A program made the position numbers and the translations under genes. From a bacterium (GTDB lineage Bacteria > Patescibacteriota > Microgenomatia > UBA8517), in the NCBI GenBank assembly GCA_030583725.1, contig CP129472.1, positions 334,958-398,957 of the forward strand: DNA of 64,000 nucleotides. Direction: 5' to 3'. Below are positions 1,345 through 18,987 of this stretch, in pieces. The notes beneath the pieces are model-generated. The model was not told the origin of the DNA. It searched no databases and worked only from the letters and a program-made list of their open reading frames with translations. The stretch's first letter is position 1, and each line of letters starts with the position of its first letter.

Positions 1345-1983
1345 ATGCAAATTGATATAATCACACTTTTTCCGACAATGTTTGAAAGACCAATGAATGA
1401 GTCAATTATGTGGAGAGCACAAGACAAGGACTTTTTAAAATTAAATGTTGTAGATATGCGTGAGTTTGGAATAGATGAAAGAAGAACAGTTGATGATAAG
1501 CCGTATGGGGGAGGAGCTGGTATGATAATTCGTGTTGACGTTGTAGACAATGCCCTAAAGTCACTCGGTGTAAAAAAGGGCGACCCAAATACAAGAATAG
1601 TAGTACTAGATGCTGGTGGAGAAAAATTTAATCAATCTAGGGCATACGAATACTCAAAACTTGAAAAACTTGTACTAATTTGTGGTAGATACGAAGGAAT
1701 TGACCACAGGGTTCATGAAAATTTAGTTGATGAAGTTGTGTCTATTGGAAATTATGTTTTAACGGGAGGTGAAATCCCAGCAATGGTTATAGCCGATGCA
1801 GTTACAAGACTTATTCCAAACGTGATTAAACCAGAATCTCTAGCTGAAGAATCACACTCTGGTTTCGATTCTGAATATCCTCAATATACTCGCCCTGAAG
1901 ATTATAATGGTTTAAAAGTCCCAGAAATATTACTTACAGGAAACCATGGTGAAATTGAAAAGTGGAGAAAAAGTAATCAATAG
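1345..1983 (+). CDS. trmD: tRNA (guanine37-N1)-methyltransferase TrmD
   Basis: MQIDIITLFPTMF start, GGGAGMI motif and RYEGIDHRV motif; length 212 aa. Confidence 0.9.
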   Translation: MQIDIITLFPTMFERPMNESIMWRAQDKDFLKLNVVDMREFGIDERRTVDDKPYGGGAGMIIRVDVVDNALKSLGVKKGDPNTRIVVLDAGGEKFNQSRAYEYSKLEKLVLICGRYEGIDHRVHENLVDEVVSIGNYVLTGGEIPAMVIADAVTRLIPNVIKPESLAEESHSGFDSEYPQYTRPEDYNGLKVPEILLTGNHGEIEKWRKSNQ

Positions 1984-2864
1984 GAAGACAAAAATACTAC
2001 CCTTACATATCTCACTATCTTAAATAAGTTAATCCCTAAAACTACGAAATAATTAAACAGAAGTGGATATTTATTCCACAAATTTTTTCTGTAAAACAAT
2101 TCCATTGATGCAACCCCTGCAAGTCTAATTTTTCTTCTTTGGGCATCAGTTAACTTGTGTCTCCATTTTTTAACCTTACCCTTAGTAACACCTTTTAAGT
2201 GGGTAATATATACGTCTGGATAATAAACTAACTTATATCCTGTTTTGTGAATTTGATAACAAAGATCAACGTCTTCCCCATCAAAAAAGTATCTTTCATC
2301 AAACCAACCAACTTTATCCAAAAGTTTTTTGTAAGTTAAGAAAAATGCACCCTGAATTGCTTCAACCTCATGTGTTGCCGTATCTGGAATATAGTCATAG
2401 TAATAATCATGGCTTCTACCCAAAACTAATTTATTAAAAGATACCCAGGGGGTAGGAAACTTCCTCCTGACATCTTTATCCATACTGCCATCCTGCAGAA
2501 TTAGTTTGCAAGTGACTGCTCCCACCTTTGGGTGTTCTTCAAGATATCTTACGGTTCTTGCAAAAACATCTTTGTGAACTAACGTATCAGGATTTAAAAA
2601 CAAAACCATTTCCCCATTAACATATGGTTTTGCCCTATTGTTACCTTTTGAGAAACCTTCGTTTGGTCCTTCTATATATTTAACCCAAGGAAAATTCTTC
2701 TTTATCATTTCTGGACTGCCATCATTTGAGGAGTTGTCAGAAACAATAACCTCCATTGGGACTTCGCCCATGTTTTCTTTAACAGATTTCAAACAATCTG
2801 ATAAAAGTTCCTTTGTGTTGTAGTTTAGAATAATTATAGACAACTTTGGTTTGTGTGATTTCAT
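1977..2864 (-). CDS. GT2 family glycosyltransferase
   Basis: LSIIILNYNT...VSDNSSNDGS...NPD and a DxD-like DGED motif; classic GT-A fold signatures. Confidence 0.8.
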   Translation of the reverse strand: MKSHKPKLSIIILNYNTKELLSDCLKSVKENMGEVPMEVIVSDNSSNDGSPEMIKKNFPWVKYIEGPNEGFSKGNNRAKPYVNGEMVLFLNPDTLVHKDVFARTVRYLEEHPKVGAVTCKLILQDGSMDKDVRRKFPTPWVSFNKLVLGRSHDYYYDYIPDTATHEVEAIQGAFFLTYKKLLDKVGWFDERYFFDGEDVDLCYQIHKTGYKLVYYPDVYITHLKGVTKGKVKKWRHKLTDAQRRKIRLAGVASMELFYRKNLWNKYPLLFNYFVVLGINLFKIVRYVRVVFLSSY

Positions 2865-2928
2865 AAGTTATATTGTTTCAGTTTTTATGTTATTTTTCAA
2901 GAGCCTAGGTATGTTACAATAACACTGT

Positions 2929-3771
2929 ATGAAAAAGATACTATTATCTGTAGTAATTGTAAATATGAACACGCGCGACCTGACTGTGGGTTGCATTAGA
3001 TCAATTCAAAAAGAAGCTGGCAGTATTCCAATTGAAGTATTACTTACAGATAATGGTAGTAGTGATGGCTCTGTTGAAGCTTTTCAAAAAATTTCCAAAG
3101 AAAAATTTTGGAATGGTAAGTTTACATTAATTCTAAATGACACAAACACTGGTTATGCTAAAGCAAACAACCAAGGTATACGAAGAGCTAAGGGAAAATA
3201 TGTATTACTTTTAAACAATGACACAATCGTACACAAAGACGCACTTCAAAACCTGATTAAGTTTGCAGAAAAAACTGAAGATGCAGGCGTTATAGGTAGC
3301 AGATTATTAAATATAGATGGAACACTACAAATGTCTTGTTTTAACTTTCCAACAGTTAAGAACGCTATCCTTGAGTATTTTGGAGGAAGAAAAGGGTTAT
3401 TTGACAAGTTTGCGCCTCTTGGAGATAAACCAACAACAGTTGATTCCGTAGTTGGAGCAGTATTTTTAATGACACCCAAAGCTATTAAGAAAGTTGGAAT
3501 TTTGGATGAACGGTATTGGGCCTATTTTGAAGACATAGATTATTGTAGACAGTGCTGGAAAAATGGACTTAAGGTTTATTATCTTCCAGAGTCAGTAATC
3601 ACACATTACCACGGGGCAACATTCAAAAAGATGGCGAATGAAGCCGAAAGATGGAAAAAACTAATTCCATCAAGCAAAATTTATCATGGATTTATAAATC
3701 ACTATATAATCAATGTAATTCTTTGGTCTGGTCAAAAATGGCAAAAATTACTTTCAAAATTAAACAAATGA
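2929..3771 (+). CDS. GT2 family glycosyltransferase
   Basis: LSVVIVNMNTRD...TDNGSSDGS...LLLNNDT...FEDIDYC motifs. Confidence 0.8.
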   Translation: MKKILLSVVIVNMNTRDLTVGCIRSIQKEAGSIPIEVLLTDNGSSDGSVEAFQKISKEKFWNGKFTLILNDTNTGYAKANNQGIRRAKGKYVLLLNNDTIVHKDALQNLIKFAEKTEDAGVIGSRLLNIDGTLQMSCFNFPTVKNAILEYFGGRKGLFDKFAPLGDKPTTVDSVVGAVFLMTPKAIKKVGILDERYWAYFEDIDYCRQCWKNGLKVYYLPESVITHYHGATFKKMANEAERWKKLIPSSKIYHGFINHYIINVILWSGQKWQKLLSKLNK

Positions 3772-4703
3772 AACTCAAACAAACAGACATCGAAATTTCT
3801 ATAGTAATCGTGTCGTCTCAAATTAAATACCTTGGTGGCTGTTTAAAAACTTTATATTCAGCACTAAAAGGTATTCCTAATGAAATAATTATTGTTGACA
3901 ATGCTTCAGTCGATAAAATTGGCGAACAAATTAAGAAACAATTTTCAGAAGTAATAATAATAAGAAGAGAAGTAAATGGTGGTTTTGGTGAAAACAACAA
4001 TATGGGAATGAGAATAGCAAAAGGTAGATATGTATTACTTTTAAATGATGATACAGAAATAATTGATAAAAACATTTTCAAAGAAATGATTGAGTGGATG
4101 GATTCTCATCCTAAAGTTGGTCTTTCTAGTTGTGCGTTAGTAAACCCAGATCTCAAGAACTACCAAGGATCAGGTGGATATTTTCCTACTCTATTAAGAG
4201 TTATTGCGTGGATGACTTTTATCGACGATATTCCATACCTTGATAACATTATTAAACCATATCACCCAATGCATTCTTCTTCATTTATTCACACTAATGA
4301 AGATTATTACAAAAAGGCACATAAACAAGACTGGGTAACTGGAGCATTTTTCTTTATGCGTAAATCAGCAATGGATGAGGCGGGCATATTTGATGAAAAG
4401 TTTTTCCTTTATGTGGAAGAGGTTGAACTAGCATACAGATTTTACCTAAAGGGTTGGGAAACATGGTACTTACCAAAATGGAAAACTGTTCACTATGGAA
4501 TGGCCACAAACGGAAGTGAAAAAGCGACAATTATGGAAATGCAAAACCTTAGGTTATTTTATAAGTTACACATGCCAAAATGGCAACTTCCTATATTAAC
4601 CGGAGTACTTAAGTTTGGAGTTTTATTAAGAATAATAATTTATACTATTTTTGGTAAATTAAATATTACAAAAATTTATTTGAAGGCTCTAACTAGCTTC
4701 TAA
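3768..4703 (+). CDS. GT2 family glycosyltransferase
   Basis: ISIVIVSS...VDNASVD...LLLNDDTE...YVEEVELAYR motifs. I set the start at the ATG that overlaps the previous stop codon as ATGA; the tracked ORF's N-terminal extension is in the previous gene. Confidence 0.75.
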   Translation: MKLKQTDIEISIVIVSSQIKYLGGCLKTLYSALKGIPNEIIIVDNASVDKIGEQIKKQFSEVIIIRREVNGGFGENNNMGMRIAKGRYVLLLNDDTEIIDKNIFKEMIEWMDSHPKVGLSSCALVNPDLKNYQGSGGYFPTLLRVIAWMTFIDDIPYLDNIIKPYHPMHSSSFIHTNEDYYKKAHKQDWVTGAFFFMRKSAMDEAGIFDEKFFLYVEEVELAYRFYLKGWETWYLPKWKTVHYGMATNGSEKATIMEMQNLRLFYKLHMPKWQLPILTGVLKFGVLLRIIIYTIFGKLNITKIYLKALTSF

Positions 4704-4710
4704 CAAGTAT

Positions 4711-5640
4711 TTATCTATATTTCCACTGACCCATGCCTTTTCTACCTAATAATGCGTCTATAGCTCCCCATTTTTGCCAAGTTCTGCCCGTGAATATTTG
4801 TCTTACAGTATCTCTTAATACCGCAAATTTTGTTCTTAATGGTGAGTATCTCATTGAGTAGTAAAATCTATTTCTAATTAAAAAATAATCATTTGTAGGG
4901 CTTCCTGATCCACCAGTTGAAGCTGATACCTTATGCCACATCCAAGTGTCTGGATAATACATTACCTTATATCCTGCACGTATTACTCTTTCTGAAAAGT
5001 CTGCATCTTCCCAATAAAGAAAGAATGATGCATCTAAAAGTCCAACTTTCTTAAATACTTCTCGCTTTACTATTACACATGCTCCATTTGCCACATCTGT
5101 TTCTTCAATCTTGTCGTATTGTCCTTTATCAATTTCATCTACACCACGATGTGATGTGTATACATTATGTTTATCAATTATGCCACCTGCGTACCATAAA
5201 ACATTTCCCTTTTCTGAAGTTTTATATCTATCTTTATGAAATTCATATCCTTTAGCAAAGTACATCTTAGGTGACGCTATTCCAACTTCAGGATTTTTTT
5301 TCATATAGTCAACAAGTTTAACAACAATATCTTTTTGCAAAATCAGATCATTGTTCATTAATATTATGTAATCAAATTTACGTCTTACAGCGTCTTTAAT
5401 CCCCACGTTATTTCCACCAGCGAAACCTAAGTTTGCACCGCTTTGAATGAACTTATACTTCATATTGGATAATTTATAATCTTTTAAAGCTTCTTCAGTG
5501 CCATCAGGAGAACCATTATCTACAATCATGCATTCAACATCCAAATTTCCTGTATCTAGTTTAGCTACATCCAAAAGTTGCTCCTTTGTCATACTTAAAG
5601 CATTTGTGGTTAAAATAATTATGGAGACTTTAGTTTTCAT
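4711..5640 (-). CDS. GT2 family glycosyltransferase
   Basis: VSIIILTTN...VDNGSPDGT...LMNNDL...YWEDADF motifs. Confidence 0.8.
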   Translation of the reverse strand: MKTKVSIIILTTNALSMTKEQLLDVAKLDTGNLDVECMIVDNGSPDGTEEALKDYKLSNMKYKFIQSGANLGFAGGNNVGIKDAVRRKFDYIILMNNDLILQKDIVVKLVDYMKKNPEVGIASPKMYFAKGYEFHKDRYKTSEKGNVLWYAGGIIDKHNVYTSHRGVDEIDKGQYDKIEETDVANGACVIVKREVFKKVGLLDASFFLYWEDADFSERVIRAGYKVMYYPDTWMWHKVSASTGGSGSPTNDYFLIRNRFYYSMRYSPLRTKFAVLRDTVRQIFTGRTWQKWGAIDALLGRKGMGQWKYR

Positions 5641-6542
5641 AGTTTGGATACAAATTCATCTATCATTTCTTTCCATGTTGGAAGTTTTATACCAAGCTTT
5701 TCTTCAGTTATTTTAGTTTGGAGTCCTCCAAGCCTCGGTCTTGGTGTTCTTCCTTCTGCTTTCAAAAATTCTGTCATAGATCCTTTTTGAACAACACCTT
5801 CTACTTTTCTAGCTTTCCAAAGTAAATACTCAACAAAGTCAAATGGTGTTGTAGTATCACTGGAAACTAAATGAAAGACGCCCTCTAGCTCATTATCTAT
5901 AATCTTGGTCATCGGTTCAACTAAATCATCGACGTTTAAAACACTTAAAATTTGGTCAGTAAAAATAGGAAACAATTTTCCTTCATCAAACAATTTCAGA
6001 TAGTTCTTGGCGAAATCCAACTTTGCTTCATATAAGGAAGGGTAAAAGGGATAGGCTATTCGTACTACTGCAAATCTTGCTCCTGATTCCCTAGCTAATT
6101 TTTCAGATCTATTCTTGGACCATCCATACCACCCAATTCCACTATTCTCTTCTGGGAGAGGAGTATTTTCTGAATAGGGCCCAGGATCGTTTTCAGTTCC
6201 CTTAAACACAAAGTCTGTAGATATCTGAATCAAAAAACGATCATGCTTTAGACACACTTCAGCTAAGTTCAGGGGTCCTACAACATTAAGCTTCCAAGTA
6301 AATCCATTTTCATCTCCTCGTTCTTTTTCAGCACCGTCAACGTTGGTGACTGCTGCAAAATTTATAACCGAGTCAAAGGAATTATCATTAAAATACTTGT
6401 TTACTGCATCACTATTTGTAATATCCAAGGTCTTTTCATCAACGGCAATAATATCTAATTCAGATTTTACAAGTTGTACAAATCTAGAACCAACTAACCC
6501 TGTTGCACCAACTACTAATACTTTTTTCATTCTATGCATCAT
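5637..6542 (-). CDS. rfbD: dTDP-4-dehydrorhamnose reductase-like NAD(P)-dependent epimerase/reductase (RmlD family)
   Basis: KVLVVGATGLVGS Rossmann motif, YSENTP/YGWSK catalytic region and a length of ~300 aa. It overlaps the rmlC-like gene by 4 nt. The real start may be the MKKVLVV Met 4 codons in. Confidence 0.65.
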   Translation of the reverse strand: MMHRMKKVLVVGATGLVGSRFVQLVKSELDIIAVDEKTLDITNSDAVNKYFNDNSFDSVINFAAVTNVDGAEKERGDENGFTWKLNVVGPLNLAEVCLKHDRFLIQISTDFVFKGTENDPGPYSENTPLPEENSGIGWYGWSKNRSEKLARESGARFAVVRIAYPFYPSLYEAKLDFAKNYLKLFDEGKLFPIFTDQILSVLNVDDLVEPMTKIIDNELEGVFHLVSSDTTTPFDFVEYLLWKARKVEGVVQKGSMTEFLKAEGRTPRPRLGGLQTKITEEKLGIKLPTWKEMIDEFVSKL

Positions 6543-7126
6543 CCTTTGGATGTAAATTTTTCTGGAAAAGTCTGTCTTAATGTTTTATTTGTTTTATCTC
6601 TTTCAGATAAAATTGGGTCTTTAATTGGCCATTTAACGGCCAGGTCAGGATCGTCCCAAGCAACACCTGAGGCCTTAGTATCATCCCAATACTCATCAAT
6701 TAAATAAAAGTAATGCATCATTTCATTTCCTGGTGTACATATTGAATTACCAATTCCTCCTTTTGGAAGAAAAAGTGCGGTTTTAGGTTTTGTGTCGTCA
6801 GTGTTATCTATTTCAATTATTTCAACTTTTCCAAAAGTCTTTGATTCAGGTCTTAAATCAGCAATCGGTGCAAACAACTTGCCGGTTACTGGGTATATTA
6901 ATTTATTCCAGTCTTCTCTGTGAAATGCCTTGATAACTCCAGGTTTTATATACGCATGTGTCCACTGTACAGGATTAAACTCAACTCCTGTTGCCACCTT
7001 AAGCTCTTCCTTGTTATATGGTTCATATACAAAACCCCTACTATCACCCATCACAGGTCTTTGTATCAAGACTACTCCCTCGATAGATGTCTTGATTATG
7101 TTTTTCTCAGGGTCAAAACGCATCAT
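6539..7126 (-). CDS. rfbC: dTDP-4-dehydrorhamnose 3,5-epimerase-like cupin (RmlC family)
   Basis: About 195 aa with a GDSRGF-type motif (MGDSRGFVYE) and a cupin beta pattern. It is adjacent to the rmlD-like gene. Confidence 0.7.
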   Translation of the reverse strand: MMRFDPEKNIIKTSIEGVVLIQRPVMGDSRGFVYEPYNKEELKVATGVEFNPVQWTHAYIKPGVIKAFHREDWNKLIYPVTGKLFAPIADLRPESKTFGKVEIIEIDNTDDTKPKTALFLPKGGIGNSICTPGNEMMHYFYLIDEYWDDTKASGVAWDDPDLAVKWPIKDPILSERDKTNKTLRQTFPEKFTSKG

Positions 7127-7181: not shown

Positions 7182-7784
7182 TTAATCTAATTTTGAAATT
7201 TTAGATAATGCCTCGTCAGCAGATACACCACTAGATAACGAGCTTTTTAAGATATCCACAGCAGCCATTGTTTGACCCAACTCATTACCCGTCTCTCCCA
7301 CCTCATTAAATCCTGAATCTTTTATGACAACAGTCACATCAAAATCCGCCTTAAGTTGTTGATTCAATCTGTCAACTTCTACCCCAGATGTAAGAGATTT
7401 GGGTAAAGTATCATTTTCAAACGCCATCAAAAGTACATTAAAATCGTCATCGGACACCTTTTTAATTAAAGGTACCCCGCACTTAATTAACACATCCAGT
7501 AACATCAATTTATGCATTCCACTTTCAGAAATACTTGTTTCTTCAAACGTCTTAGAATTATTATCAATGACTTTATTAACTACATCTAAAAATCTAGATA
7601 GCCTTTGGGGATGAGTAGACTTAGTATCATATATGGCTAACATATTTGATCTAATTGTTGATATTTCTGGATCAAGTTTTCGTTTTAATTCATCGCTATA
7701 TCCAAATACCTGCATCGAAATTGGATTCAACACACTCTTTGTAGCCTCAATTTGTCTGTCCAACTGTTCTCCTAAATTCTCCAT
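7182..7784 (-). CDS. hypothetical protein
   Basis: A 200-codon ORF with ordinary composition and no motif I recognise. Confidence 0.45.
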   Translation of the reverse strand: MENLGEQLDRQIEATKSVLNPISMQVFGYSDELKRKLDPEISTIRSNMLAIYDTKSTHPQRLSRFLDVVNKVIDNNSKTFEETSISESGMHKLMLLDVLIKCGVPLIKKVSDDDFNVLLMAFENDTLPKSLTSGVEVDRLNQQLKADFDVTVVIKDSGFNEVGETGNELGQTMAAVDILKSSLSSGVSADEALSKISKLD

Positions 7785-7851: not shown

Positions 7852-9033
7852 TTATAACTCCTCTCTTTTAATTCTCAAAAATATTATTGGCAAAATAAAC
7901 AACAAAGTTGAGATTACTAAAACATAGTTTATATTTATATTTGCCAAATATCCAATTAACAAAAGTAGCGGGATATCACTTATATTTTTAATGATATTTA
8001 AAGTTGACGTAGCTGTTGCTCTATTGTGTGATGGTATTCTTGATTGAATTTGAGCCATAAATAATGGATCCCTAACAACTCCTACTGTAAAAAGTACAGT
8101 ACATGCTAGAAACAAAATTGTGAGGTTTGATGTTAATAATGTAGACACAACTGCTATTACACCCAAGATTGGAGGATAAAACATAAAGTTGGCTTTACCC
8201 ACTTTGTTTTGTACTTTTTCAGTATTCCAAAACAGCAAAAAATTAATTCCCTGGAAAACTGTATAAAGTACACCTAAGTAAATAATTGGCATATCAGCGT
8301 TTTTTAATAAAACCTGGTAAATTCTCCAAAAAACAAAGCTTGCCTGAAATACAATTATCTTATTTAGTGCAAACTTTAAAAGAATTTTGTCGTCTTTGAT
8401 TAATCTAAGCCCTTCTTGTATTAAACCAAGTTTATTAACCTTAATTTCTTTAACATGTGGCTCAGTCAAAAACAAGGCAATGCCCATAGATATAATTGTT
8501 CCGATAAAATCAATTCCAATCAATATTAAAAACTGACTTGGTAGAAGTCCTTTGGCAATTATGGAACCTATTAACGGCATTATAACTTTGGGTAAACTAG
8601 CTGAAGAAAAATATTTTCCTGCTACTCTGTTTGCATTTGATTCTTCACCAGTTTCCTTCAATGAGTCATATAGTAACGCATGATCTGCACCTGCAAAAAA
8701 TGAATAACCCGCAGCACCTACCATATATGCAAAGATAAAGGTTAAAAAAGTAGATGCATTAAAGAGCATCGCTGTCGAGACAGCTGTTAACAGAATTCCC
8801 AAAATAATTAGTTTTTTACGTCCAAACTTATCAGCTAAAAAACTTGAAGGAACATCACAGATAAAGGAAGTTATTGTCCAAACCAAACTTAAATACACAA
8901 TCTGACCTAAATCTAATCCCCGTGATAAATAAAATAATTGAATAACAGAATTTAAAGATTTTAATTCCACAAAAAACCGTGTTCCAAACATCAGTCTTTT
9001 ATTTAATTTTAAAGCTTTAATTCTTTGTTTCAT
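7852..9033 (-). CDS. MFS transporter
   Basis: About 12 predicted TM helices, a DKFGRKK motif in the loop 2-3 position, and a length of 393 aa. Confidence 0.75.
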   Translation of the reverse strand: MKQRIKALKLNKRLMFGTRFFVELKSLNSVIQLFYLSRGLDLGQIVYLSLVWTITSFICDVPSSFLADKFGRKKLIILGILLTAVSTAMLFNASTFLTFIFAYMVGAAGYSFFAGADHALLYDSLKETGEESNANRVAGKYFSSASLPKVIMPLIGSIIAKGLLPSQFLILIGIDFIGTIISMGIALFLTEPHVKEIKVNKLGLIQEGLRLIKDDKILLKFALNKIIVFQASFVFWRIYQVLLKNADMPIIYLGVLYTVFQGINFLLFWNTEKVQNKVGKANFMFYPPILGVIAVVSTLLTSNLTILFLACTVLFTVGVVRDPLFMAQIQSRIPSHNRATATSTLNIIKNISDIPLLLLIGYLANININYVLVISTLLFILPIIFLRIKREEL

Positions 9034-9043
9034 GTAAAAAGAA

Positions 9044-9805
9044 TCAACTTACAGATAAGATAGTTAAGGCAGATAGAGTAAAACCATCTTTGAATTCATA
9101 TTCCTTTCCATCTCTATCCACGTATTTTTGATTTACTATCACCTCTTTTAATTCTTTTTTATCCAAAAATACAACACCCCGAATTGCTTCTGTAACTTCG
9201 TATTCAGGTTTTCCAGTAAAATTTATTTCAACTTTGTAAATAGGAACAACTGAAGACAAAACTCCAGAATCTGGACAAACTGATCCAACTTCTTTTGGCT
9301 CACCAATTATTTCTGCGCCTATCTCTTCAGAAAGTTCAGTCTTTACAGTCTTAAGTAAACTGTTACCTATATCTTTATTTCCTCTAGGAAATTCCAAGCA
9401 CCAAACTTTTGTGGCGTTTCTAAAGTTTTTCAAAAATACGTATTTTCCACTTGAAGTAATAGGAGCCACAACACAACCAGCAAAACCAGAATCAAGTGTT
9501 CCCCAGGATATCCAACGATTAAAAACTGTGTACGAACCATTCGGTAAGCGAAGTGGCTCATGAATTGAAACGCCCCATCTATTTTCATCAAAAATTCCAA
9601 TTTTTGATCTTTTTTCAGCATCAACCCCTGAAGTACCCGTCTTGACCATAATCGCGACAGATCCAGATTCACACTGTGGAAATAAGTTTACATCAGAAAC
9701 AACTTCAATTTCACCTTTGGAATAATCACCTTTATACCCTAAGTTATTTTTATACTTTTCTACAAAATCTAAATATGCTTGATATCTTGTTTTTGAATTT
9801 TTCAT
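9044..9805 (-). CDS. hypothetical protein with possible degenerate Nudix box
   Basis: RGNKDIGNSLLKTVKTELSEEIGAEI approximates GX5EX7REUXEEXGU with R replaced by T. Confidence 0.45.
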   Translation of the reverse strand: MKNSKTRYQAYLDFVEKYKNNLGYKGDYSKGEIEVVSDVNLFPQCESGSVAIMVKTGTSGVDAEKRSKIGIFDENRWGVSIHEPLRLPNGSYTVFNRWISWGTLDSGFAGCVVAPITSSGKYVFLKNFRNATKVWCLEFPRGNKDIGNSLLKTVKTELSEEIGAEIIGEPKEVGSVCPDSGVLSSVVPIYKVEINFTGKPEYEVTEAIRGVVFLDKKELKEVIVNQKYVDRDGKEYEFKDGFTLSALTILSVS

Positions 9806-10002
9806 TTGAAGTTATTATATCACTTGAAGATTTGTTCTTGCCGTGCGATATAGATTTTTGATTGAGTTTTTAATTCAATTTTATTTTCTATACCGCACTG
9901 GCAAAACTTCGTGAACCCCCACCACCTTTGATTCGACAGCGCAATCGCCACCAAATTTTTTTGAGGCGGTGAGGGCCAGAAGCGGTCCGAACAAATTATT
10001 AC

Positions 10003-10722
10003 TTACTTAAGCGGTTTGGACGAGATACATCCAAAGTGTTTGGCAGTGAGCCAAAGCGCGGAATTGACAAGAGCGTCAGGACCAACAGGGAAATCTCCCA
10101 GCGGATAGACGTCACCAGCCAAAACTGCATCGTGAGTACCATCGCCGATGGGCTCGCCCGCGCGCTTGAACTTGGCTACGAAGACTTCGTTGCAAGTTTC
10201 AACCCATGCGCGATTGGGATTGTGAATACCCACCAATTCGACTGAGGATTCCTCCACTTCGATTCCGGCATCCGCGATCAATCCTTCGAGTGCAGTCGCC
10301 GCGGGATTCTTCCCAACTTCCTTCGCCCATTTGCCAGTCACGCCAACAACCTGCATTCCTTTTTCGCCTGAGCGATGATCGTACATAAAAGGACGGGGTT
10401 CATTGACGCTGTGTACCCAGAGTTCACCATCGCGATCTTCGATCACAACCACCATGGCGTTGGGAGTAGCATGGCCCCAAGGGTCATTGACATCCATCGC
10501 GCCGTCGGTGCGTTCGATCTGGTCGAAATCAAAACCGATGATTTTACCCTCGGCGTCGACTTCAACCTGTGCAACATGACGGGAAGCGGAAAACGGGCTA
10601 ACAAAGCCGGCGACAGATCCGTCGGGAGTATAAAACGGGCGGTGCCCATTCTTGGACAACTGTTCGGCTTTCGCCAAAAGCAGCTCTTGCGGGACTTCGT
10701 GGAACGGGACGATTTTTTTCAT
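10003..10722 (-). CDS. hypothetical protein in a compositionally foreign high-GC (~50%) segment
   Basis: A clean 239-codon ORF whose codon usage is GC3-rich, unlike every other gene in the window. No family was recognised. Confidence 0.6.
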   Translation of the reverse strand: MKKIVPFHEVPQELLLAKAEQLSKNGHRPFYTPDGSVAGFVSPFSASRHVAQVEVDAEGKIIGFDFDQIERTDGAMDVNDPWGHATPNAMVVVIEDRDGELWVHSVNEPRPFMYDHRSGEKGMQVVGVTGKWAKEVGKNPAATALEGLIADAGIEVEESSVELVGIHNPNRAWVETCNEVFVAKFKRAGEPIGDGTHDAVLAGDVYPLGDFPVGPDALVNSALWLTAKHFGCISSKPLK

Positions 10723-10930
10723 GACTACCTCCAGTAGTTGAAATAACAGATTTGAATTACAAAATTTAAAACATTTGTTCGGACCACCTCTAAAATAGAG
10801 ATGTCCTTTAAGAATTTGAAGATTTTAAAGTCCGACCTTTTGGGTCTTGATAAAGAACTAAACAGGTCAACTTTTTAAGTTGTGGAGGTAGTATATCAGG
10901 CAATTTTCCATTTGTCAAGATTATAGGATA

Positions 10931-12109
10931 CTATTTAATGTCAATACGATTGTTCATCAACCTCTTAAGTGCTGGCTCAAGAAACATTCTTATTTTTGCA
11001 ACCGTATATGATTCGTATGGAATTCTCATAAAAGTAAGTCCTTTAGTTTCGTGTGCAGGTCTTGTTACAGGTTTTAACTTCCTAGCTATAAACAATAAGT
11101 CAGTAGCAATAAGTCTTGCATTAAGTTCTTCTTTTTCTTGTTCTGATAACCTGGAATTTTTAACAAATTCAGCTAAAATTAAACGTTTTGATTCATCGGA
11201 CAAACCCTCGCTAGAATGATGCATTAGTAGGCTCGAAATACCTCCAGAAAAATGATCCCACCCTGCATATTCCATATCAATAGGCACTAATATTCTTTTA
11301 TCATCAATAAGTTTAAAATTCATGTTTGGAAAACTCACATCTCCCCAATTAAATCTTAGGTCGGTTATATTAGTTCGCTTGTGTAAAACTATTGGATCTA
11401 TAAACCGAAGTAATTCATTTAATCTAGATTCAAACAAGGGAATTATATTATTGTCTGTACACCACATTTTCGTAGTTATTTTGCCATCATCATCTAACCA
11501 ACGTTTAAATTGCTCAAGTCGAGAAACTGTCTCCTGATAAATTTCATATACTGAATCTTTTGAATATCTACTCCTATTTGCAAATTGTTCTAAATTTGTA
11601 GGAATAGCCTTTAATTCATTTAAACGAATTAAAAAATCAACTAATAACTTCGATTTATTGTCTTCTAAAATCAATGGATAAACTTGATCTAGATTATCTA
11701 TAAACTCAGTAGCTATTAGCCTATCAGCGTTACTCTCTAATATATTTTTTGGTAATAATATACGAGATTCTGCTCCAAAAATTCCAGAATTTTGAAGAAA
11801 ATCTTTACCTAACGATTCCGCTACAAATCCAGATTGACTATTTTCACCGCCAGAAAATAACTTGACAGCAAGAGATTTTTGACCATCTGGACTAAATTTA
11901 AAAACAACATTATTAAAACTATAAATACGGCTGAAATCTTTAGCACCTATTTTTGATATATTTGTACCGTTTTGTTCAGAATATTGCAAAACAAATCTTG
12001 CTACTTTTTCTGCTGAATATTTATGTAAATGAAGATTTTCTTCTAATGATCTAACCAAACCTGATTTTTCATTTTTTGTTTGGATGATATCTTTACCGGA
12101 GTCCGACAT
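10931..12109 (-). CDS. APH/choline-kinase/NahK-like phosphotransferase (possible anomeric sugar kinase)
   Basis: ITDLRFNWGDVSF is a Brenner HxD-like catalytic loop and VPIDMEYAGWDHFSGG is the IDxE..G..D motif of the APH family. The gene lies inside the nucleotide-sugar cluster. Confidence 0.55.
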   Translation of the reverse strand: MSDSGKDIIQTKNEKSGLVRSLEENLHLHKYSAEKVARFVLQYSEQNGTNISKIGAKDFSRIYSFNNVVFKFSPDGQKSLAVKLFSGGENSQSGFVAESLGKDFLQNSGIFGAESRILLPKNILESNADRLIATEFIDNLDQVYPLILEDNKSKLLVDFLIRLNELKAIPTNLEQFANRSRYSKDSVYEIYQETVSRLEQFKRWLDDDGKITTKMWCTDNNIIPLFESRLNELLRFIDPIVLHKRTNITDLRFNWGDVSFPNMNFKLIDDKRILVPIDMEYAGWDHFSGGISSLLMHHSSEGLSDESKRLILAEFVKNSRLSEQEKEELNARLIATDLLFIARKLKPVTRPAHETKGLTFMRIPYESYTVAKIRMFLEPALKRLMNNRIDIK

Positions 12110-12110
12110 T

Positions 12111-12863
12111 TTAATATAATTTCAAGATATTCATTGAGATAAGCCTCAAAACAGAACACAAGAAATATGGATCGTCAACAGTATTTATCATCTCTCCCAA
12201 TTTGTTTATTGGAAAAACCTTAATTCCAAATTCTATTTTCTTGGTAGTAATAGAATCCTTCTCCAATTCTCTAATTTTTTGTGAGTCATTTGCATCTAAT
12301 ACTGCCGCAAACAATGCAGCCTGTTTATTTGTTAGGGTTATATCTGGATTTATTTGTCCTAAATCAATAAATCTCTTTACAATCAACTCATTTAAACCAA
12401 GCTCATTTTTTATTTCTTTTTCTACAATCGCAGGAAAATTTTTGATCGATCCTTGAGAAAATTGAATAAAGTCGCCAATCGTATCATAAACCCATGTACC
12501 TACTGAAAACTTTTTAGTATATTTAAGTACAAAATATTTGATTCCATCTCCGTGTTCCAATAGCAATATACCTCTGTAGCCTGCATTCTTTCCATATTTG
12601 AAACTAGCATACTCATATGTAAAAATTTGATTAGTTTTTTGCGATCTGACCTCAAAGACTGGGGTTATAATAAAGTTTCCCCGAGGAATCCTTAAAATTC
12701 TAAGAATATCAACGCCTTCAAATTCATCTGGTCTCGAAGCTAAGTCCCACAAAAATCCATCAAAATCTTGAGGCAAATTTAGCAGATCACTTTTAACTTC
12801 TTCATCTGTATTTTGAAACCAAACTTTTTCTGATAACTTTTCTATTAATTGAGTCCTATCCAT
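12111..12863 (-). CDS. Nudix-like domain protein, paralog of the C-terminal extension of the rmlB fusion
   Basis: The C-terminus KVFPINKLGEMINTVDDPYFLCSVLRL aligns with VLWPIDKLADLVNKCDDSYFLSALSRL of the 633-aa protein. A KEIKNELGL motif resembles REUXEEXGU. Confidence 0.55.
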   Translation of the reverse strand: MDRTQLIEKLSEKVWFQNTDEEVKSDLLNLPQDFDGFLWDLASRPDEFEGVDILRILRIPRGNFIITPVFEVRSQKTNQIFTYEYASFKYGKNAGYRGILLLEHGDGIKYFVLKYTKKFSVGTWVYDTIGDFIQFSQGSIKNFPAIVEKEIKNELGLNELIVKRFIDLGQINPDITLTNKQAALFAAVLDANDSQKIRELEKDSITTKKIEFGIKVFPINKLGEMINTVDDPYFLCSVLRLISMNILKLY

Positions 12864-12909
12864 ATACTAACTTTAGTCTTTGAAGCTACTTTTTTCAAGA
12901 TAGAAAAAC

Positions 12910-14811
12910 TTACTGGAGTTTGAGGTTTGTGGCACCCGAGAGGTTAAGTCTTGAAAGAGCTGAAAGAAAGTAAGAATCGTCACATTTATTGACAAGGTCT
13001 GCAAGTTTATCAATTGGCCATAAAACTATTCCTTCGTCTTCTTCAAATTTATCTCCACTTTTGACGTCTTTATAAAGCTCATCTGACAAGTCTGCTATAA
13101 CTGCATATAAGTTTGGTTTATTGTTTGTCATACCAGAATCTGGATTAAGTCTCCCTAATGAAATTATTTGGTCTAGTGTTACATCTTTTTTAGCTACATC
13201 CAAGTTTAAATCTTTCTTCAACGACCTAACTATGAAATCAAGTACAGATTCATTTAGTTGTGGGAATCCACCTGCAAGTGAATATTCAACTGCTCCTGTA
13301 GCAAACTTCTTTTCTCGCTGTGTTGCTAAGTGGGTTATTTTTCCATTTCTTTTAATTAAAATTAAAAGTTTCGCGCCTGATTTTGGTCCCCAACCCCACG
13401 AATAGTAACCCTCCATTCTCTTTTTACCTTTTTTATCATCAACTTCAAACCATGAACCTATACCATATATACCAAATTCTGGATTAGCATGTTCTATCTT
13501 AGATAATTTTTGAATTACATCACCGTTTAAACGGTCCTCCCTACCTGCTAAGTCCTCAACGTAACCAAATGTAGATGGATTTATACCCAAAGTTTTAATT
13601 TCATCCTTTATAGCTTCAGAACTATTTTGATACCATTTTTTGCTTTCTAAATTTTTAATAACAATTTCATATCTAACTAAATTTTGTTCTACAAAGTGTT
13701 CATCAGTATCTACCTTCTCTGGCACCTTACCATTATCTTCAACCTGACCAAAAACAAACTTTGTTTTCCCAGAATCTCTATCAAGTGATATGTAAGCAGA
13801 GATTGACTTGGACCTATCCATTATCATTGCCTTCCTTTTAAGAAGTGGTCTCCACCAATCCTGATTATCTTTATACCACTTTATGGTTTCTTTAAGTCCT
13901 TCATTAAAATTATCTCTTGTGATTTCAGGTTTCCAACCCAGCTCCTCAATAATCTTTGTCGCATCAATAGCATATCTTCTATCATTACTGTGTCTGTCTG
14001 AAACATGCCTAATCATGTTTTGATTTGCACCATACAAATCTACAACTTTCTCTGCTATATAACCATTACTCCTATCATTATTCGATCCAATTAAATAAGT
14101 TTCGCCTGACCTACCCTTCTTTAGGATTAGATCAACTGCAGATGAGTGATCTTTGGTGTGTATCCAATCACGAACATTTCTTCCATCACCATGGAGTGGA
14201 ACTTTTATATTATCTATTAAATTAGTAACTACTATTGGGATAAACTTTTCAGGGAACTGGTATGGGCCGTAGTTGTTTGAACAGTTGGAAATTGTTATAT
14301 ACATTCCTGTCTTTTGATAAAAATCTAAAACTATTTTATCTGCCTCTGCTTTTGATAAGGCGTATAAGTTATCAGGTCTTGGTGAATAAGGAGTTTTTTC
14401 TGTAAATCTGGCGTCAGAATCCAGTGGAAGTTCACCATACACTTCATCAGTTGAAATATGGTGAAACCTGGTAATTCCAGCTTTGTTAGCCTCCTCAAGG
14501 AGGGTAAGCGTACCATGCACATTAGTTTGCCAATAAGTAGACGGGTCAAAAATTGCCCTATCAACATGACTTTCTGCAGCAAAATGAACAACAGCGTCCA
14601 CACCTTTTAAACTCTGAGAAACACTTTTGCGATCATTAATGTCTGCTTCTGCAAACTCTATATTCTTAATTACAGGAGTTAAGTTTTCAATATTACCTGC
14701 ATAAGTTAAAGAATCTATAACTTTTATTTTGTCTTTTGGATATTTTTTAACCCAATAATGCACAAAGTTTGATCCAATAAACCCCGCTCCACCTGTTACT
14801 AATATTTTCAT
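12910..14811 (-). CDS. rfbB: dTDP-glucose 4,6-dehydratase (RmlB) fused to a ~300-aa C-terminal Nudix-like domain
   Basis: The N-terminal 330 aa are canonical RmlB (MKILVTGGAGFIGSN, YxxxK region). The C-terminal extension contains GFPQLNESVLDFIVRSLKKDL, a degenerate Nudix box. Confidence 0.85.
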   Translation of the reverse strand: MKILVTGGAGFIGSNFVHYWVKKYPKDKIKVIDSLTYAGNIENLTPVIKNIEFAEADINDRKSVSQSLKGVDAVVHFAAESHVDRAIFDPSTYWQTNVHGTLTLLEEANKAGITRFHHISTDEVYGELPLDSDARFTEKTPYSPRPDNLYALSKAEADKIVLDFYQKTGMYITISNCSNNYGPYQFPEKFIPIVVTNLIDNIKVPLHGDGRNVRDWIHTKDHSSAVDLILKKGRSGETYLIGSNNDRSNGYIAEKVVDLYGANQNMIRHVSDRHSNDRRYAIDATKIIEELGWKPEITRDNFNEGLKETIKWYKDNQDWWRPLLKRKAMIMDRSKSISAYISLDRDSGKTKFVFGQVEDNGKVPEKVDTDEHFVEQNLVRYEIVIKNLESKKWYQNSSEAIKDEIKTLGINPSTFGYVEDLAGREDRLNGDVIQKLSKIEHANPEFGIYGIGSWFEVDDKKGKKRMEGYYSWGWGPKSGAKLLILIKRNGKITHLATQREKKFATGAVEYSLAGGFPQLNESVLDFIVRSLKKDLNLDVAKKDVTLDQIISLGRLNPDSGMTNNKPNLYAVIADLSDELYKDVKSGDKFEEDEGIVLWPIDKLADLVNKCDDSYFLSALSRLNLSGATNLKLQ

Positions 14812-14816
14812 AATTT

Positions 14817-15707
14817 TTAAATCTCTAAACTCTTGAGGTAATCTCTAAATTTACCATTTAAATCTTTGTGTTTTAGTGCAAATTCAACAACTGTTTTTAA
14901 GTATTCTAATTTATTGCCAGTGTCATAATATTTACTATTCTTAATTTCTTTTACATATACATCTATATTATCCTTCAACATCAGTTTAATAGGATCATTG
15001 TAGTAAAGCTCATCACCTTCCTTTAAATTATCTTTTGCAATTTCTAAATATTTAAAAATCTCTGGGGTAAACAAGAAGCCTGAAACATTTGCAATATCTG
15101 AAGGAGAATTTTCTCTTCCAGGTTTTTCTATAATAGTGTTTACTTTGATTAAACCATCCTCAACTGTTTCTCCACCCGCAAAGCCATATCTGTCATAATC
15201 TTCATCCTTCGTAGCTTTAATTCCAGCTAGAACACTTCCACCATATTTTTCGTAAATTGAAATTAACTGTTTAAACCTGTTTGGTTCAGCCACGATAAAA
15301 TCATCGCTCCATGTATAAATAAATGGTTCATCTCCAATTAAATGTTTGACATTTAATAGTGGTGTCCCATTTCCATATGGTCCCTTTTGCCTTATGTAGA
15401 CAAAGTTTGCCATATTTGATATTTTTTCCACTTCCTCTAGTAGATGCTTCTTTTTCTCCCCTCCCATTTTTAAGTTTTCAATCAAGTCTAGGTTTGGAGC
15501 ATCAAAATGGTCTTCAATTCCTCGCTTGTGGTAACCAGTTACTATAAAAATGTCTTGTATCCCAGCTTCAACTAATTCTTCCACCACATACTGAATGACA
15601 GGTTTATCCACAATAGGAAGCATCTCTTTAGGCATTGCCTTAGTTTGGGGTAGAAATCTTGTTCCAAAACCAGCTGCTGGAATTACTGCTTTTGTTACTT
15701 TTTTCAT
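14817..15707 (-). CDS. galU: UTP--glucose-1-phosphate uridylyltransferase (GalU family)
   Basis: VIPAAGFGTRFLPQTKAMPKEMLPIVDKPVIQYVVEE is the GalU signature; length 296 aa. Confidence 0.85.
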   Translation of the reverse strand: MKKVTKAVIPAAGFGTRFLPQTKAMPKEMLPIVDKPVIQYVVEELVEAGIQDIFIVTGYHKRGIEDHFDAPNLDLIENLKMGGEKKKHLLEEVEKISNMANFVYIRQKGPYGNGTPLLNVKHLIGDEPFIYTWSDDFIVAEPNRFKQLISIYEKYGGSVLAGIKATKDEDYDRYGFAGGETVEDGLIKVNTIIEKPGRENSPSDIANVSGFLFTPEIFKYLEIAKDNLKEGDELYYNDPIKLMLKDNIDVYVKEIKNSKYYDTGNKLEYLKTVVEFALKHKDLNGKFRDYLKSLEI

Positions 15708-15738
15708 ATACTTAAGTGTGAAAAGAATTATACTAGGA

Positions 15739-15999
15739 CTAAGTTCTAAAAATCAAGGTAAAGACCATAACTAGACCCAATATAGCCACGGAAAAGTACT
15801 CTAAAACTATAGACAAACATATATCTTTGTGGAGTGTATGGTGTATTATTCCCCAAGACACATAAGCTGAGGCCATTGCAACAGCCACCCCAATTTGAAA
15901 AAATCTGTCAAAAGAAAAAACATAGAAGCCAACAATTCCTGCAATAAAAATGGTAATTAGAGAAAAATAGTGTGGTAGATGTTTTAAATGTTTTTGCAT
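15739..15999 (-). CDS. small membrane protein (2-3 TM)
   Basis: An 86-codon ORF with hydrophobic helices. Confidence 0.35.
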   Translation of the reverse strand: MQKHLKHLPHYFSLITIFIAGIVGFYVFSFDRFFQIGVAVAMASAYVSWGIIHHTLHKDICLSIVLEYFSVAILGLVMVFTLIFRT

Positions 16000-16020
16000 T
16001 TCTTTAAATAATATATATTT

Positions 16021-16989: not shown

Positions 16990-18987
16990 TCAAGTAAGAT
17001 TGGTTCTAATGCGACGTATATACTTAAAAATCAACTTTCTTTTTTGTATTATTTTTAAAGTTAAGTATAAAAACAATAAACCCACAAAAATATAGATCAT
17101 TTTCATAATCATTGAATTTCCACTAGCTTCCGTCGATTCTCCAAAAACTTGAGGGTCACCAGATTCATCATCTTCATAAGCTAATAAAACAGGTGTTGTA
17201 TTGAAAAATGCCGTATTATAGCCGGAAATTATAAAGCTTGATTCAGATTCTGCTGATATTTCATCCTCTCCTGGTCCAACTACTCCATAGCCTGTAACTT
17301 TAGCAACATATAACCCTGGCACTGCCCTTCTGGACATTACAAGACCTGTTGATAGTCTAACAGTCTTTTGTGCATCGATATCTCCAAGATCAAAATGACT
17401 TCCACCATAATTTATTCCATCTCTATATAGCTCAATTTTAAGTTTTGCACCATAAACTTTTCCATAACCTACATTTTTGATTCTGGCTTGAAAAGTAATC
17501 GTATCACCCGGAAATACATATGCCCCTACATTATTAGTATGAGTTACTTCCAAAACCCCTCCGCTTTCTTTTTCTGATTGTTTGGTTTCTTCCTCAGTAG
17601 TTGGTTGGGGAGAAACATCAGGCGAAACTTCTTCAAACATGCTTGTCCCCCCAACATCGCCTACTAATGTCCCAAAAATATTGATAAATCCTATAAACCC
17701 TTGGGAATTAATTATGTTTGTGTTTACAAGGTTTACAAGCGATATACTGTTATATGCATTGCCTGTTTTTATATCTCCGTCTTCACTGTTTACAATCTGG
17801 TTATTTCCGGTATTTGAATTTGAACTGATATTATTATTAACAATTGCAGTATTTGTACCCGTCATGGCATTTGAACTACAATAAACACACCCACCACCTT
17901 GTAAAATTAAACCATTTTGGCCAGAATCAATTGCTAAGTTATTATCAGTTTGGGCGGGTTCATCCATCCAGCCTAAGAAATCTCCTATCCAAACTCCTAG
18001 TGTATTAATATATAAATACCTAAAAACGGTATCGACTATGTTGGTATTTACTATGTTTACGACATTTACAACACTTTGAGAGTCACCTGTTTCAATACTT
18101 GATAAACCATTACCGATAGTTGAGTTTTCACCAGTATTTGAGCTAGATGATATGTTGTTATTAACAGACGCATCACTGGATAGATCAATATTAGAACTAC
18201 AGCTCACACAAGAACCAGAATCTTTATATTCAGGAAGTATTATATTTCCTGTTAAGTTGCCAAAAATATTTATAGTCACCAAATGAACTTTTGAATCAAC
18301 TACGTTTGTATTTACATTATTAAGTACAGAAACGACAGAATATGCATCCCCTGTTTGAATATTTGAACTCAACCCATTTTCAACAGTGTTACCACCAGTA
18401 TTTGAGCTTGAAGAAATATTATTTTCAACATATGCATAATTTTCAATATATGAAAAATTATTAGAATCAGTTACTTTGACAGATATATTTTCGGATAAGT
18501 TATTGTCAACTCCATATACTTTGTTGATGACATTAGAAGTTAAACTTGATAGATTAATATTGCCTGATTCTGGAAGATATATATTTAAAGTGTGGTATAC
18601 AAACTCTGAATTTATAATATTTGTATTGACATTATTTTCAACCTCAACAACTGATACAGCATCTGAGGTAACTATTTCAGAAACAGGTGTTGGAGATGGT
18701 TCGCTACTTGGACTTGGAGATTCATCAATATTGTAAATAACAACTACGTGACTTGGTTCTGGAGTTGGGGACGCTAAGACTTCAATTGTATTTTCGCCTG
18801 TATTTGATGTGTCTGTTATATCATTAATAACTTCTGCAGTGTTTTCAATCTCAATCTCAGAAGTTACTGTAGCCTCAGGTGTGGGACTTTCTAAATCTTC
18901 TTGGGCATATATCAAAACAGGAAAGATATTTGTAAAACACAACAACAATACAACTACTATATTTATTACTCTTTTTATTTTTTTCAT
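16990..18987 (-). CDS. large secreted/cell-surface repeat protein with C-terminal TM anchor
   Basis: A signal peptide followed by about four ~85-aa tandem repeats of the form NNISSSSNTGxN...TGDA...V.VxNxVNTNIVDS, then a C-terminal TM helix and basic tail. Confidence 0.65.
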   Translation of the reverse strand: MKKIKRVINIVVVLLLCFTNIFPVLIYAQEDLESPTPEATVTSEIEIENTAEVINDITDTSNTGENTIEVLASPTPEPSHVVVIYNIDESPSPSSEPSPTPVSEIVTSDAVSVVEVENNVNTNIINSEFVYHTLNIYLPESGNINLSSLTSNVINKVYGVDNNLSENISVKVTDSNNFSYIENYAYVENNISSSSNTGGNTVENGLSSNIQTGDAYSVVSVLNNVNTNVVDSKVHLVTINIFGNLTGNIILPEYKDSGSCVSCSSNIDLSSDASVNNNISSSSNTGENSTIGNGLSSIETGDSQSVVNVVNIVNTNIVDTVFRYLYINTLGVWIGDFLGWMDEPAQTDNNLAIDSGQNGLILQGGGCVYCSSNAMTGTNTAIVNNNISSNSNTGNNQIVNSEDGDIKTGNAYNSISLVNLVNTNIINSQGFIGFINIFGTLVGDVGGTSMFEEVSPDVSPQPTTEEETKQSEKESGGVLEVTHTNNVGAYVFPGDTITFQARIKNVGYGKVYGAKLKIELYRDGINYGGSHFDLGDIDAQKTVRLSTGLVMSRRAVPGLYVAKVTGYGVVGPGEDEISAESESSFIISGYNTAFFNTTPVLLAYEDDESGDPQVFGESTEASGNSMIMKMIYIFVGLLFLYLTLKIIQKRKLIFKYIRRIRTNLT

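Follow-up and report, generated by a model that had tools for sequence, protein, structure and literature searches.

The window considered here, a 64-kb stretch of contig CP129472.1, carries what sequence comparison predicts to be a rhamnose-precursor operon of a Woesebacteria-type bacterium of the candidate phyla radiation (CPR), with a GalU-type nucleotidyltransferase, RmlB, RmlC and RmlD. At its center is a 633-aa protein encoded at 12910–14811, in which RmlB, the dTDP-glucose 4,6-dehydratase (residues 1–323), is continued by a 310-aa C-terminal extension. A free paralog of that extension (250 aa, 12111–12863) and a divergent phosphotransferase of the APH/choline-kinase superfamily (392 aa, 10931–12109) follow. 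All genes of the cluster lie on the minus strand and all positions are those of the window; related loci fetched for comparison are designated L0xx and related proteins P00xx. Known folds are combined in a previously undescribed, lineage-conserved architecture, which is accompanied by a rare, fixed Nudix-kinase gene pair. A first-pass annotation of the window had already recognized an RmlB with an extension of ~300 aa, and the strings it quoted are present at the places it gave; it missed two further Nudix genes (10003–10722 and 9044–9805) and the downstream rmlC and rmlD.

The dehydratase portion of the fusion (13843–14811) matches TIGR01181 over residues 2–323 with 399.5 bits, above the curated cutoff of 365.1 and hence at the equivalog level. 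It contains GGAGFIGSNF (residues 7–16), which provides the GxxGxxG of the NAD site, STDEVYG (120–126) and YALSK (150–154), which hold the catalytic T-D-E and Y-x3-K residues. Residues 1–323 are, by these criteria, a bona fide dTDP-glucose 4,6-dehydratase. No Pfam or NCBIfam model covers the remainder of the chain (residues 324–633). It begins with a linker (residues 324–375; 13687–13842) containing the conserved ISAYISLDRDSGKTKFVFG, a segment kept in all fusion homologs and modelled as beta strands with a predicted local distance difference test (pLDDT) score below 50. The linker leads into a family-specific helical subdomain (residues 376–422; 13546–13686) that is common to the extension and the free paralogs, aligns with the N-terminus of the 250-aa protein and is the best-modelled part of the extension (pLDDT 90–96). 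The Nudix-fold core spans residues 431–624 (12940–13521).

Assignment of the extension to the Nudix fold draws on structural and profile comparisons. An AlphaFold model was built from a 12-sequence alignment, before the 175-sequence family described below was known, and its confidence is low (mean pLDDT 60.8, falling below 50 around the Nudix box). All of the top 50 PDB matches retrieved by Foldseek with this model are Nudix hydrolases of the ADP-ribose/nucleoside diphosphate (NDP)-sugar branch, at probability 1.00, with E-values down to 6.9e-8 (1vhg), ~200 aligned columns and template modelling scores of ~0.5 on the target. Among them are NudE (1vhg), the GDP-mannose hydrolase YffH (3o69), NUDT5 and a Bdellovibrio NDP-sugar hydrolase (5c7q). 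Neither the extension nor the 250-aa paralog matches the Pfam NUDIX model (PF00293) at E ≤ 1, and the link to Nudix sequence families is therefore indirect: hhalign aligns the extension-family profile with the family of a 253-aa Nudix protein encoded farther downstream in the window (probability 80%, E = 1.4e-5, 137 columns). Neither the extension nor the two proteins encoded behind it (250 and 392 aa) gave a significant match in direct searches of Pfam, NCBIfam and PDB sequences. The extension-family profile returned four weak PDB matches (E 0.05–0.6), three of them to Nudix proteins, with AraR (5bs6) among the weak matches at E 0.1–0.25. Taken together, the model and the profile alignment predict a Nudix-fold domain of the ADP-ribose/NDP-sugar-pyrophosphatase branch, the Nudix nature of the extension having been proposed at first pass. 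Like members of this branch (E. coli NudE 1vhg, NudK/YffH 3o69, NudF, human NUDT5 and 5c7q), the extension has the G-x5-E-x7-R spacing, a loop of the PD(S)G type that comes after the box, and a helix at its C-terminus; it differs from them in its RS-U-x-K-D box, an extra N-terminal helical subdomain, a WGWGPKSGAK loop and the fusion to a dehydratase.

The degenerate Nudix box, GFPQLNESVLDFIVRSLKKDLNL (residues 515–537; 13201–13269), reads G-x5-E-x7-R-S-L-K-K-D-L-N-L, so that the spacing is canonical and the first glutamate and the arginine are present, with RSLKKD in place of REUxEE. Among 116 homologs the box follows the pattern GGFP[KR]LNES[VI]L.FI.RS[LIF][KQ]KDL[NGD], and RS[LIF][KQ]KD is found in nearly all of them, which bears out the earlier description of a box whose catalytic glutamates are partly substituted. 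Because the replacements of the box glutamates (Ser, Lys and Asp) are conserved across these 116 homologs, they are under selection. One ortholog, P0009 (44% identical), has a near-canonical RKLEEELGI, and the fusion box would therefore descend from a canonical one. The modelled helix E521–D534 fits the canonical register of the box, and no register of the window sequence restores all three glutamates. The alignments show the metal-binding glutamates of the box to have been replaced and the replacements conserved. Two further elements, a Gly-rich WGWGPKSGAK loop and a PDSGMTNN loop, are near-invariant across the family.

A domain with such a box would no longer be expected to hydrolyse its ligand by the canonical Nudix mechanism. 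It might, alternatively, be an active enzyme: the fused domain and the free paralog would then both be NDP-sugar pyrophosphatases with a non-canonical metal site, trimming the pool of dTDP- or UDP-glucose or of the reactive 4-keto-6-deoxy intermediate, in the manner of GDP-mannose hydrolases such as NudK/YffH or Gmm (WcaH/NudD). The closest structures are indeed those of NDP-sugar hydrolases (YffH and the Bdellovibrio enzyme), P0009 keeps RKLEEELGI, the free paralogs keep two invariant glutamates, and conservation extends to the G-x5-E glutamate, R529, D534 and the PDSG loop. However, Ser and Lys stand in for two of the three box glutamates in almost every one of the 116 fusions, no Pfam NUDIX match is obtained even at E ≤ 1, and hydrolysis of the substrate or product of the very enzyme to which the domain is attached would be futile unless tightly regulated. 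We regard an active hydrolase as a tentative alternative, on the unlikely side.

The fusion is widely distributed. A search with the extension-family profile recovered 175 proteins, at least 113 of which are full-length (600 aa or longer, about 630–643 aa) and consist of RmlB domains followed by the extension. All named fusion copies are called dTDP-glucose 4,6-dehydratase and come from Candidatus Woesebacteria or Microgenomates, in independent assemblies that include the complete genome CP011214.1. Given this recurrence, we rejected an artefact of assembly or annotation as its origin. The extension is less conserved than the dehydratase, with identities between the window and L001 of 68% for the extension and 79% for the RmlB part, and of 49% and 72%, respectively, between the window and L002. 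Apparently free copies of the extension in the first search are fragments. In L001 the split looks like a frameshift, one frame remaining open with no stop across the called gene boundary, and in L002 a frameshift is likewise suggested by the overlap of the two gene calls on a contig of low coverage. The first-pass annotation did not know a dehydratase-Nudix fusion as a standard architecture; judging by the 175 matches, it is the standard, lineage-wide one in Woesebacteria/Microgenomates rather than a peculiarity of this genome. No account of an RmlB-Nudix fusion came to light in literature searches, and well over one hundred CPR proteins in public databases carry the extension without annotation, half of each being invisible to Pfam and NCBIfam. 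A 369-aa relative of RmlB, P0012, keeps the linker segment ISAYISLDRESGKTKFVFGK and ends ahead of the Nudix domain; either this short form occurs naturally or the gene has been truncated.

The extension could also be purely structural, a dimerization or scaffolding remnant that binds no ligand. Both RmlB and Nudix proteins of the ADP-ribose pyrophosphatase type form dimers, the catalytic residues have been lost, and P0012 appears to be an RmlB without the domain. The substituted box residues and the WGWGPKSGAK and PDSGMTNN loops are, however, near-invariant, which is more than a scaffold usually needs, and we consider a structural remnant very improbable.

Several known systems provide points of comparison. 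Gmm (WcaH/NudD) is an active Nudix GDP-mannose mannosyl hydrolase encoded beside gmd in the colanic-acid cluster of E. coli and presumably tunes the precursor pool. As in the present case, there is genetic linkage between a Nudix protein and an NDP-sugar 4,6-dehydratase, but Gmm has a gene of its own, is active and works in the GDP-mannose pathway, whereas the Nudix domain in the window is fused, degenerate and part of a dTDP-rhamnose pathway. In NrtR (PMC2330246) and the Bacteroides regulator AraR (5bs6), a Nudix fold with a degenerate box binds a nucleotide or sugar ligand instead of hydrolysing it, and both offer precedents for a non-catalytic Nudix effector domain. They act as transcriptional regulators, with a winged-helix DNA-binding domain at the C-terminus, whereas the partner of the Nudix domain here is an enzyme. 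No helix-turn-helix family is matched in the fusion protein, and its chain ends 11 residues past the last Nudix helix.

A third group, the EvaA-type NDP-hexose 2,3-dehydratases, belongs to the Nudix superfamily and binds dTDP-sugars, in Nudix-like pockets, downstream of RmlB in deoxysugar pathways (PMC8987622). By analogy, the fused domain might be a sugar-modifying enzyme that acts on the product of RmlB, as EvaA and TylX3 do. Such enzymes use dTDP-4-keto-6-deoxyglucose, one remnant pocket among them binds dTDP-rhamnose (PMC8987622), and the fusion places the domain beside the enzyme that makes that substrate. Yet there is no Pfam hexose 2,3-dehydratase match at E ≤ 1, EvaA is absent from the PDB profile matches and from the top 50 fold matches, and the operon otherwise encodes only RmlC and RmlD, with no 3-ketoreductase evident. 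EvaA is also built from a tandem pair of Nudix-like domains, whereas the window protein has a single one per chain and no detectable sequence or best-fold relation to it. A catalytic role of this kind has, in our estimation, hardly any likelihood.

In the reading that we favor, at a probability of roughly one half, the fused domain would bind an NDP-sugar, would not hydrolyse it in the canonical way, and would modulate the dehydratase or serve it. The ligand would most plausibly be a dTDP- or UDP-linked intermediate of the pathway or its end product, dTDP-L-rhamnose, and the domain would act as a sensor, a regulator or a hand-over module on the dimeric dehydratase. In dTDP-rhamnose pathways elsewhere the first enzyme, RmlA, is subject to allosteric feedback regulation. 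A GalU-type enzyme appears to take the place of RmlA here, and the fused domain may supply the feedback control that RmlA gives elsewhere. Several points weigh against this proposal. The proposed feedback sensing is pure conjecture, and the check for RmlA covered the 64-kb window only. The register of the box differs by 1–4 residues between BLAST/MAFFT, hhalign and the motif-based reading, and the retention of D534, the G-x5-E glutamate and the PDSG loop in the fusion leaves room for a non-canonical hydrolase. The low-confidence model of the extension, with pLDDT below 50 near the box, allows no binding site to be read from it. Should the domain prove to sense a ligand, it would represent an enzyme-fused case of the catalytic-to-regulatory conversion known for Nudix domains in transcription factors, and would show a minimal-genome symbiont regulating its supply of cell-envelope sugar without a classical RmlA.

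The gene that would substitute for rmlA, the first of the operon (14817–15707, 296 aa), encodes a putative GalU-type sugar-1-phosphate nucleotidyltransferase. The protein matches Pfam NTP_transferase at 2.7e-26 and TIGR01099 (galU) with 260 bits, which is under the cutoff of 326.8, yet this is by far the best-matching family; these scores agree with the GalU-like call made at first pass. It carries the signature AAGFGTRFLPQTKAMPKEMLPIVDKP, and its gene holds the only G-x-G-T-R-F/L sugar-nucleotidyltransferase signature in the window. The gene is directly upstream of RmlB-Nudix in L001, L002, L013 and L014 as well. Gene order in L001, L002, L013 and L014/L015 (the complete genome CP011214.1) is CAP-domain gene, 86-aa gene, GalU-like gene, RmlB-Nudix, a variable slot, RmlC and RmlD. 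In L001 and L002 nothing lies in the slot between rmlB and rmlC, and RmlC and RmlD come directly after RmlB-Nudix. The L013 slot is occupied by an uncharacterized 449-aa gene, a gene with the nucleotidyltransferase fold and a major facilitator superfamily (MFS) transporter. In L014 a 292-aa Nudix gene directly follows RmlB-Nudix, with no kinase; its product belongs to the family of a 239-aa Nudix protein of the window, discussed below, and the slot also contains a weak DUF6016 match. In the window itself the slot holds six genes. Their leading members are predicted to form an accessory module, composed of the free paralog coupled to the kinase and then a degenerate Nudix gene behind its own conserved promoter.

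Chance cannot account for the relationship between the extension and the 250-aa protein, also noted at first pass: they are 30% identical in BLASTP along 246 aa (E = 9e-33). The box-like KEIKNELGL of the 250-aa protein keeps two glutamates, and free paralogs in general keep x-E-U-K-x-E-L-G-U, with two glutamates invariant. In the window, one base separates the stop codon of the paralog gene from the kinase start, and the paralog is predicted to be translationally coupled to the kinase. Orthologs of the free paralog, 49–88% identical to the window copy, lie directly upstream of the kinase in nine loci (the window, L005, L003/L004, L006, L007, L008, L009, L016 and L017), with ends that touch or overlap the kinase start. 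The free paralog precedes the kinase in every locus for which sequence 5′ of the kinase is available, and it remains 49–88% identical even where kinase identity drops to about 22%. The pair stands behind RmlB-Nudix in the window and in L005. Elsewhere it adjoins a sortase and rho (L008), with no GalU or rml gene nearby, or a large membrane protein (L007 and L017); there is likewise no GalU or rml gene near the pairs of L007, L016 and L017.

The 392-aa kinase gives no direct match to Pfam (PF01636 and PF01633), NCBIfam or the PDB, the family searches extending to E ≤ 1, and its assignment comes from a transitive profile search. A profile of three kinase sequences found 34 relatives among 1.84 billion representatives. 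In the resulting family of 35 aligned sequences, 23 carry the Pfam APH domain and eight carry Choline_kinase; no variation is seen at D257, D278, E280, G283 and H297, and conservation reaches at least 90% at K83, E98 and N262. Against the PDB, the family profile matches APH(2'') (3uzr, 9e-7; 3ham, 1e-6), the corramycin phosphotransferase (8agy) and the choline kinase LicA (4r77). NCBIfam matches of the relatives are heterogeneous, including CotS, APH(3'), homoserine kinase and others. On these grounds the protein is predicted to be a divergent kinase of the APH/choline-kinase superfamily with its catalytic set intact: it has the same K, E, D-x4-N and D-x-E-Y residues as APH and choline kinases, but is too divergent for Pfam. 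The motifs are RFNWGDVSFPN (residues 252–262) and IDMEYAGWDHF (277–287). The catalytic loop is best read as G-D257-V-S-F-P-N262 (D-x4-N), with D278 of IDMEY as the metal-binding Asp. The first-pass assignment to the APH superfamily is upheld by this search; its choice of the whole string DLRFNWGD as catalytic motif is not, since only the tail of that string (G-D257, followed by N262) belongs to the motif. An AlphaFold model of the kinase from a 3-sequence alignment reached a pLDDT of 47.9, and Foldseek with that model returned only noise; scans of genomes and metagenomes with kinase patterns yielded no new context.

The kinase invites comparison with NahK and AmgK, anomeric sugar kinases of the APH family (PF01636) that work with nucleotidyltransferase partners. 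A salvage route from kinase to pyrophosphorylase had accordingly been suggested at first pass; in it, an imported sugar would be phosphorylated at C1 by this kinase, acting like NahK or AmgK, and activated by the GalU-like enzyme, the resulting NDP-sugars being edited or regulated by the Nudix proteins. The APH superfamily does include anomeric sugar kinases, the pair lies inside the rml operon in the window and L005, an MFS transporter is nearby, and in L017 the pair has a large membrane protein and a cytidylyltransferase-like gene as neighbors. Other observations run the other way. GalU is syntenic with RmlB, RmlC and RmlD in relatives that have no kinase, and the kinase travels instead with the free Nudix paralog, also away from rml, as in L008, where the pair is beside a sortase and rho, and in L007, L016 and L017. 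The partner of the kinase is thus Nudix-like rather than a nucleotidyltransferase. There is no specific likeness to NahK: neither NahK nor AmgK is among the listed PDB or NCBIfam matches of the family, the best PDB matches are antibiotic and choline kinases, and NCBIfam names are mixed. An HD phosphohydrolase fused to one kinase relative suggests, in addition, a nucleotide-type and not a sugar substrate. The functional link between kinase and GalU is weak, because the pair also occurs at loci without GalU or rml genes nearby, and such a salvage route appears doubtful and rather improbable.

The free Nudix protein and the kinase would more plausibly form a unit that acts on a phosphorylated small molecule, probably related to sugars or nucleotides, and that is not obligatorily tied to GalU. 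Together they mark out a kinase clade that is small and very rare and has a fixed partner, which makes it tractable for substrate discovery. In L017 (3410–5230), a distant kinase relative carries a C-terminal HD phosphohydrolase domain and is still preceded by a free Nudix paralog; the cytidylyltransferase-like gene lies two genes downstream of this kinase-HD fusion.

Behind the kinase, in all pair loci, comes a spacer of about 190–300 nt. That of the window is about 200 nt long (10723–10930, minus strand) and carries a conserved predicted promoter and leader 5′ of the 239-aa gene. The promoter (10918–10890) is sigma-70-type and near-consensus, TTGACA-17-TATACT with an extended TG, 11 of 12 positions matching. 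The −35 and −10 elements and a further motif, ACTTAAAAAGT (10880–10870), are almost fully conserved across six loci (the window, L003, L005, L006, L007 and L008), with 10 of the 11 positions of ACTTAAAAAGT invariant. A hairpin, GACCCAAAAGGTC, is conserved in four loci. The leader 5′ of the 239-aa gene has no Rfam match and folds no better than shuffled sequences (z = −0.93), and RNAalifold of the spacer shows only a 4-bp invariant hairpin and no covariation. The conserved spacer element may act as an operator or represent an uncharacterized leader.

Behind the spacer there is, in most cases, a Nudix gene of the 239-aa family. The window copy (10003–10722, 239 aa) is a Nudix-family protein with a degenerate box, EGLIADAGI where REUxEExGU is expected; among its homologs, L003_274 and L006_221 exceed the cutoff of the Pfam NUDIX model and L014_292 reaches 1e-3. 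The gene is an outlier in G+C content (0.535, and 0.554 at third codon positions, vs about 0.31–0.34 and 0.19–0.25 for its neighbors). An excess of G+C in this third slot is also seen at L005:2328–3038, L006:2232–2897, L003:1561–2385, L007:4143–4889 and L016:3186–4160, and not in L008. The third-slot proteins of these five other GC-rich loci are only 25–65% identical. A single ancient transfer followed by amelioration does not explain the recurrent excess, and the 239-aa protein has no relatives in phage, plasmid or IMG/VR viral-contig collections. At L007:4143–4889 the third slot is occupied by a member of the extension family itself (248 aa, 34% identical to the window extension) with a near-canonical TELKEELGM box; the extension Nudix family would therefore comprise three subtypes.

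A bolder scenario would combine these elements. In Woesebacteria, regulation of deoxysugar synthesis would have passed from RmlA to RmlB, an NDP-sugar pyrophosphatase having been captured and turned into a metal-free NDP-sugar sensor. These ultra-small symbionts would possess, besides, an undescribed three-gene pathway (a free paralog that still bears the box, its obligate and very divergent APH-like kinase, and a persistently GC-rich third gene, a Nudix gene in most loci, preceded by the conserved promoter and leader) that phosphorylates and cleaves a nucleotide-linked metabolite. We consider the scenario as a whole speculative and decidedly unlikely.

The remaining genes of the slot are more conventional. 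Downstream of the 239-aa gene, a 253-aa protein (9044–9805), the one whose family aligns with the extension profile, has an intact E-U-x-E-E-x-G in its box, TELSEEIGA. It matches NudF (5c7q) at 3.1e-5 and NUDT5 at about 5e-3 in the PDB and NudE at 7.4e-5 in NCBIfam, and has a 53%-identical ortholog in L003. It is predicted to be an ordinary ADP-sugar-pyrophosphatase-like Nudix protein. An MFS transporter (7852–9033, 393 aa; Pfam MFS_1, 1.3e-25) comes next, and a 77%-identical ortholog of it lies directly upstream of rmlC in L013. Between the transporter and rmlC, a 200-aa protein with no family assigned (7182–7784) gave no Pfam or PADLOC match and has no homolog in any fetched locus. The operon resumes with RmlC (6539–7126, 195 aa; Pfam dTDP_sugar_isom, 2.2e-33) and closes at its downstream end with RmlD (5637–6542, 301 aa; Pfam RmlD_sub_bind, 2.7e-48). 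PADLOC defence models produced no meaningful match at the locus, and an Rfam scan of 9000–16000 nothing real. Beyond RmlD, four family-2 glycosyltransferases occupy 1977–5640 on both strands. At the other end, upstream of the CAP-domain gene, a 665-aa protein (16990–18987, minus strand) has a signal-like N-terminal segment, a hydrophobic C-terminal segment and numerous repeats that follow the pattern NN(I/V)SSSSNTG.N...GD...V..VN.VNTN.

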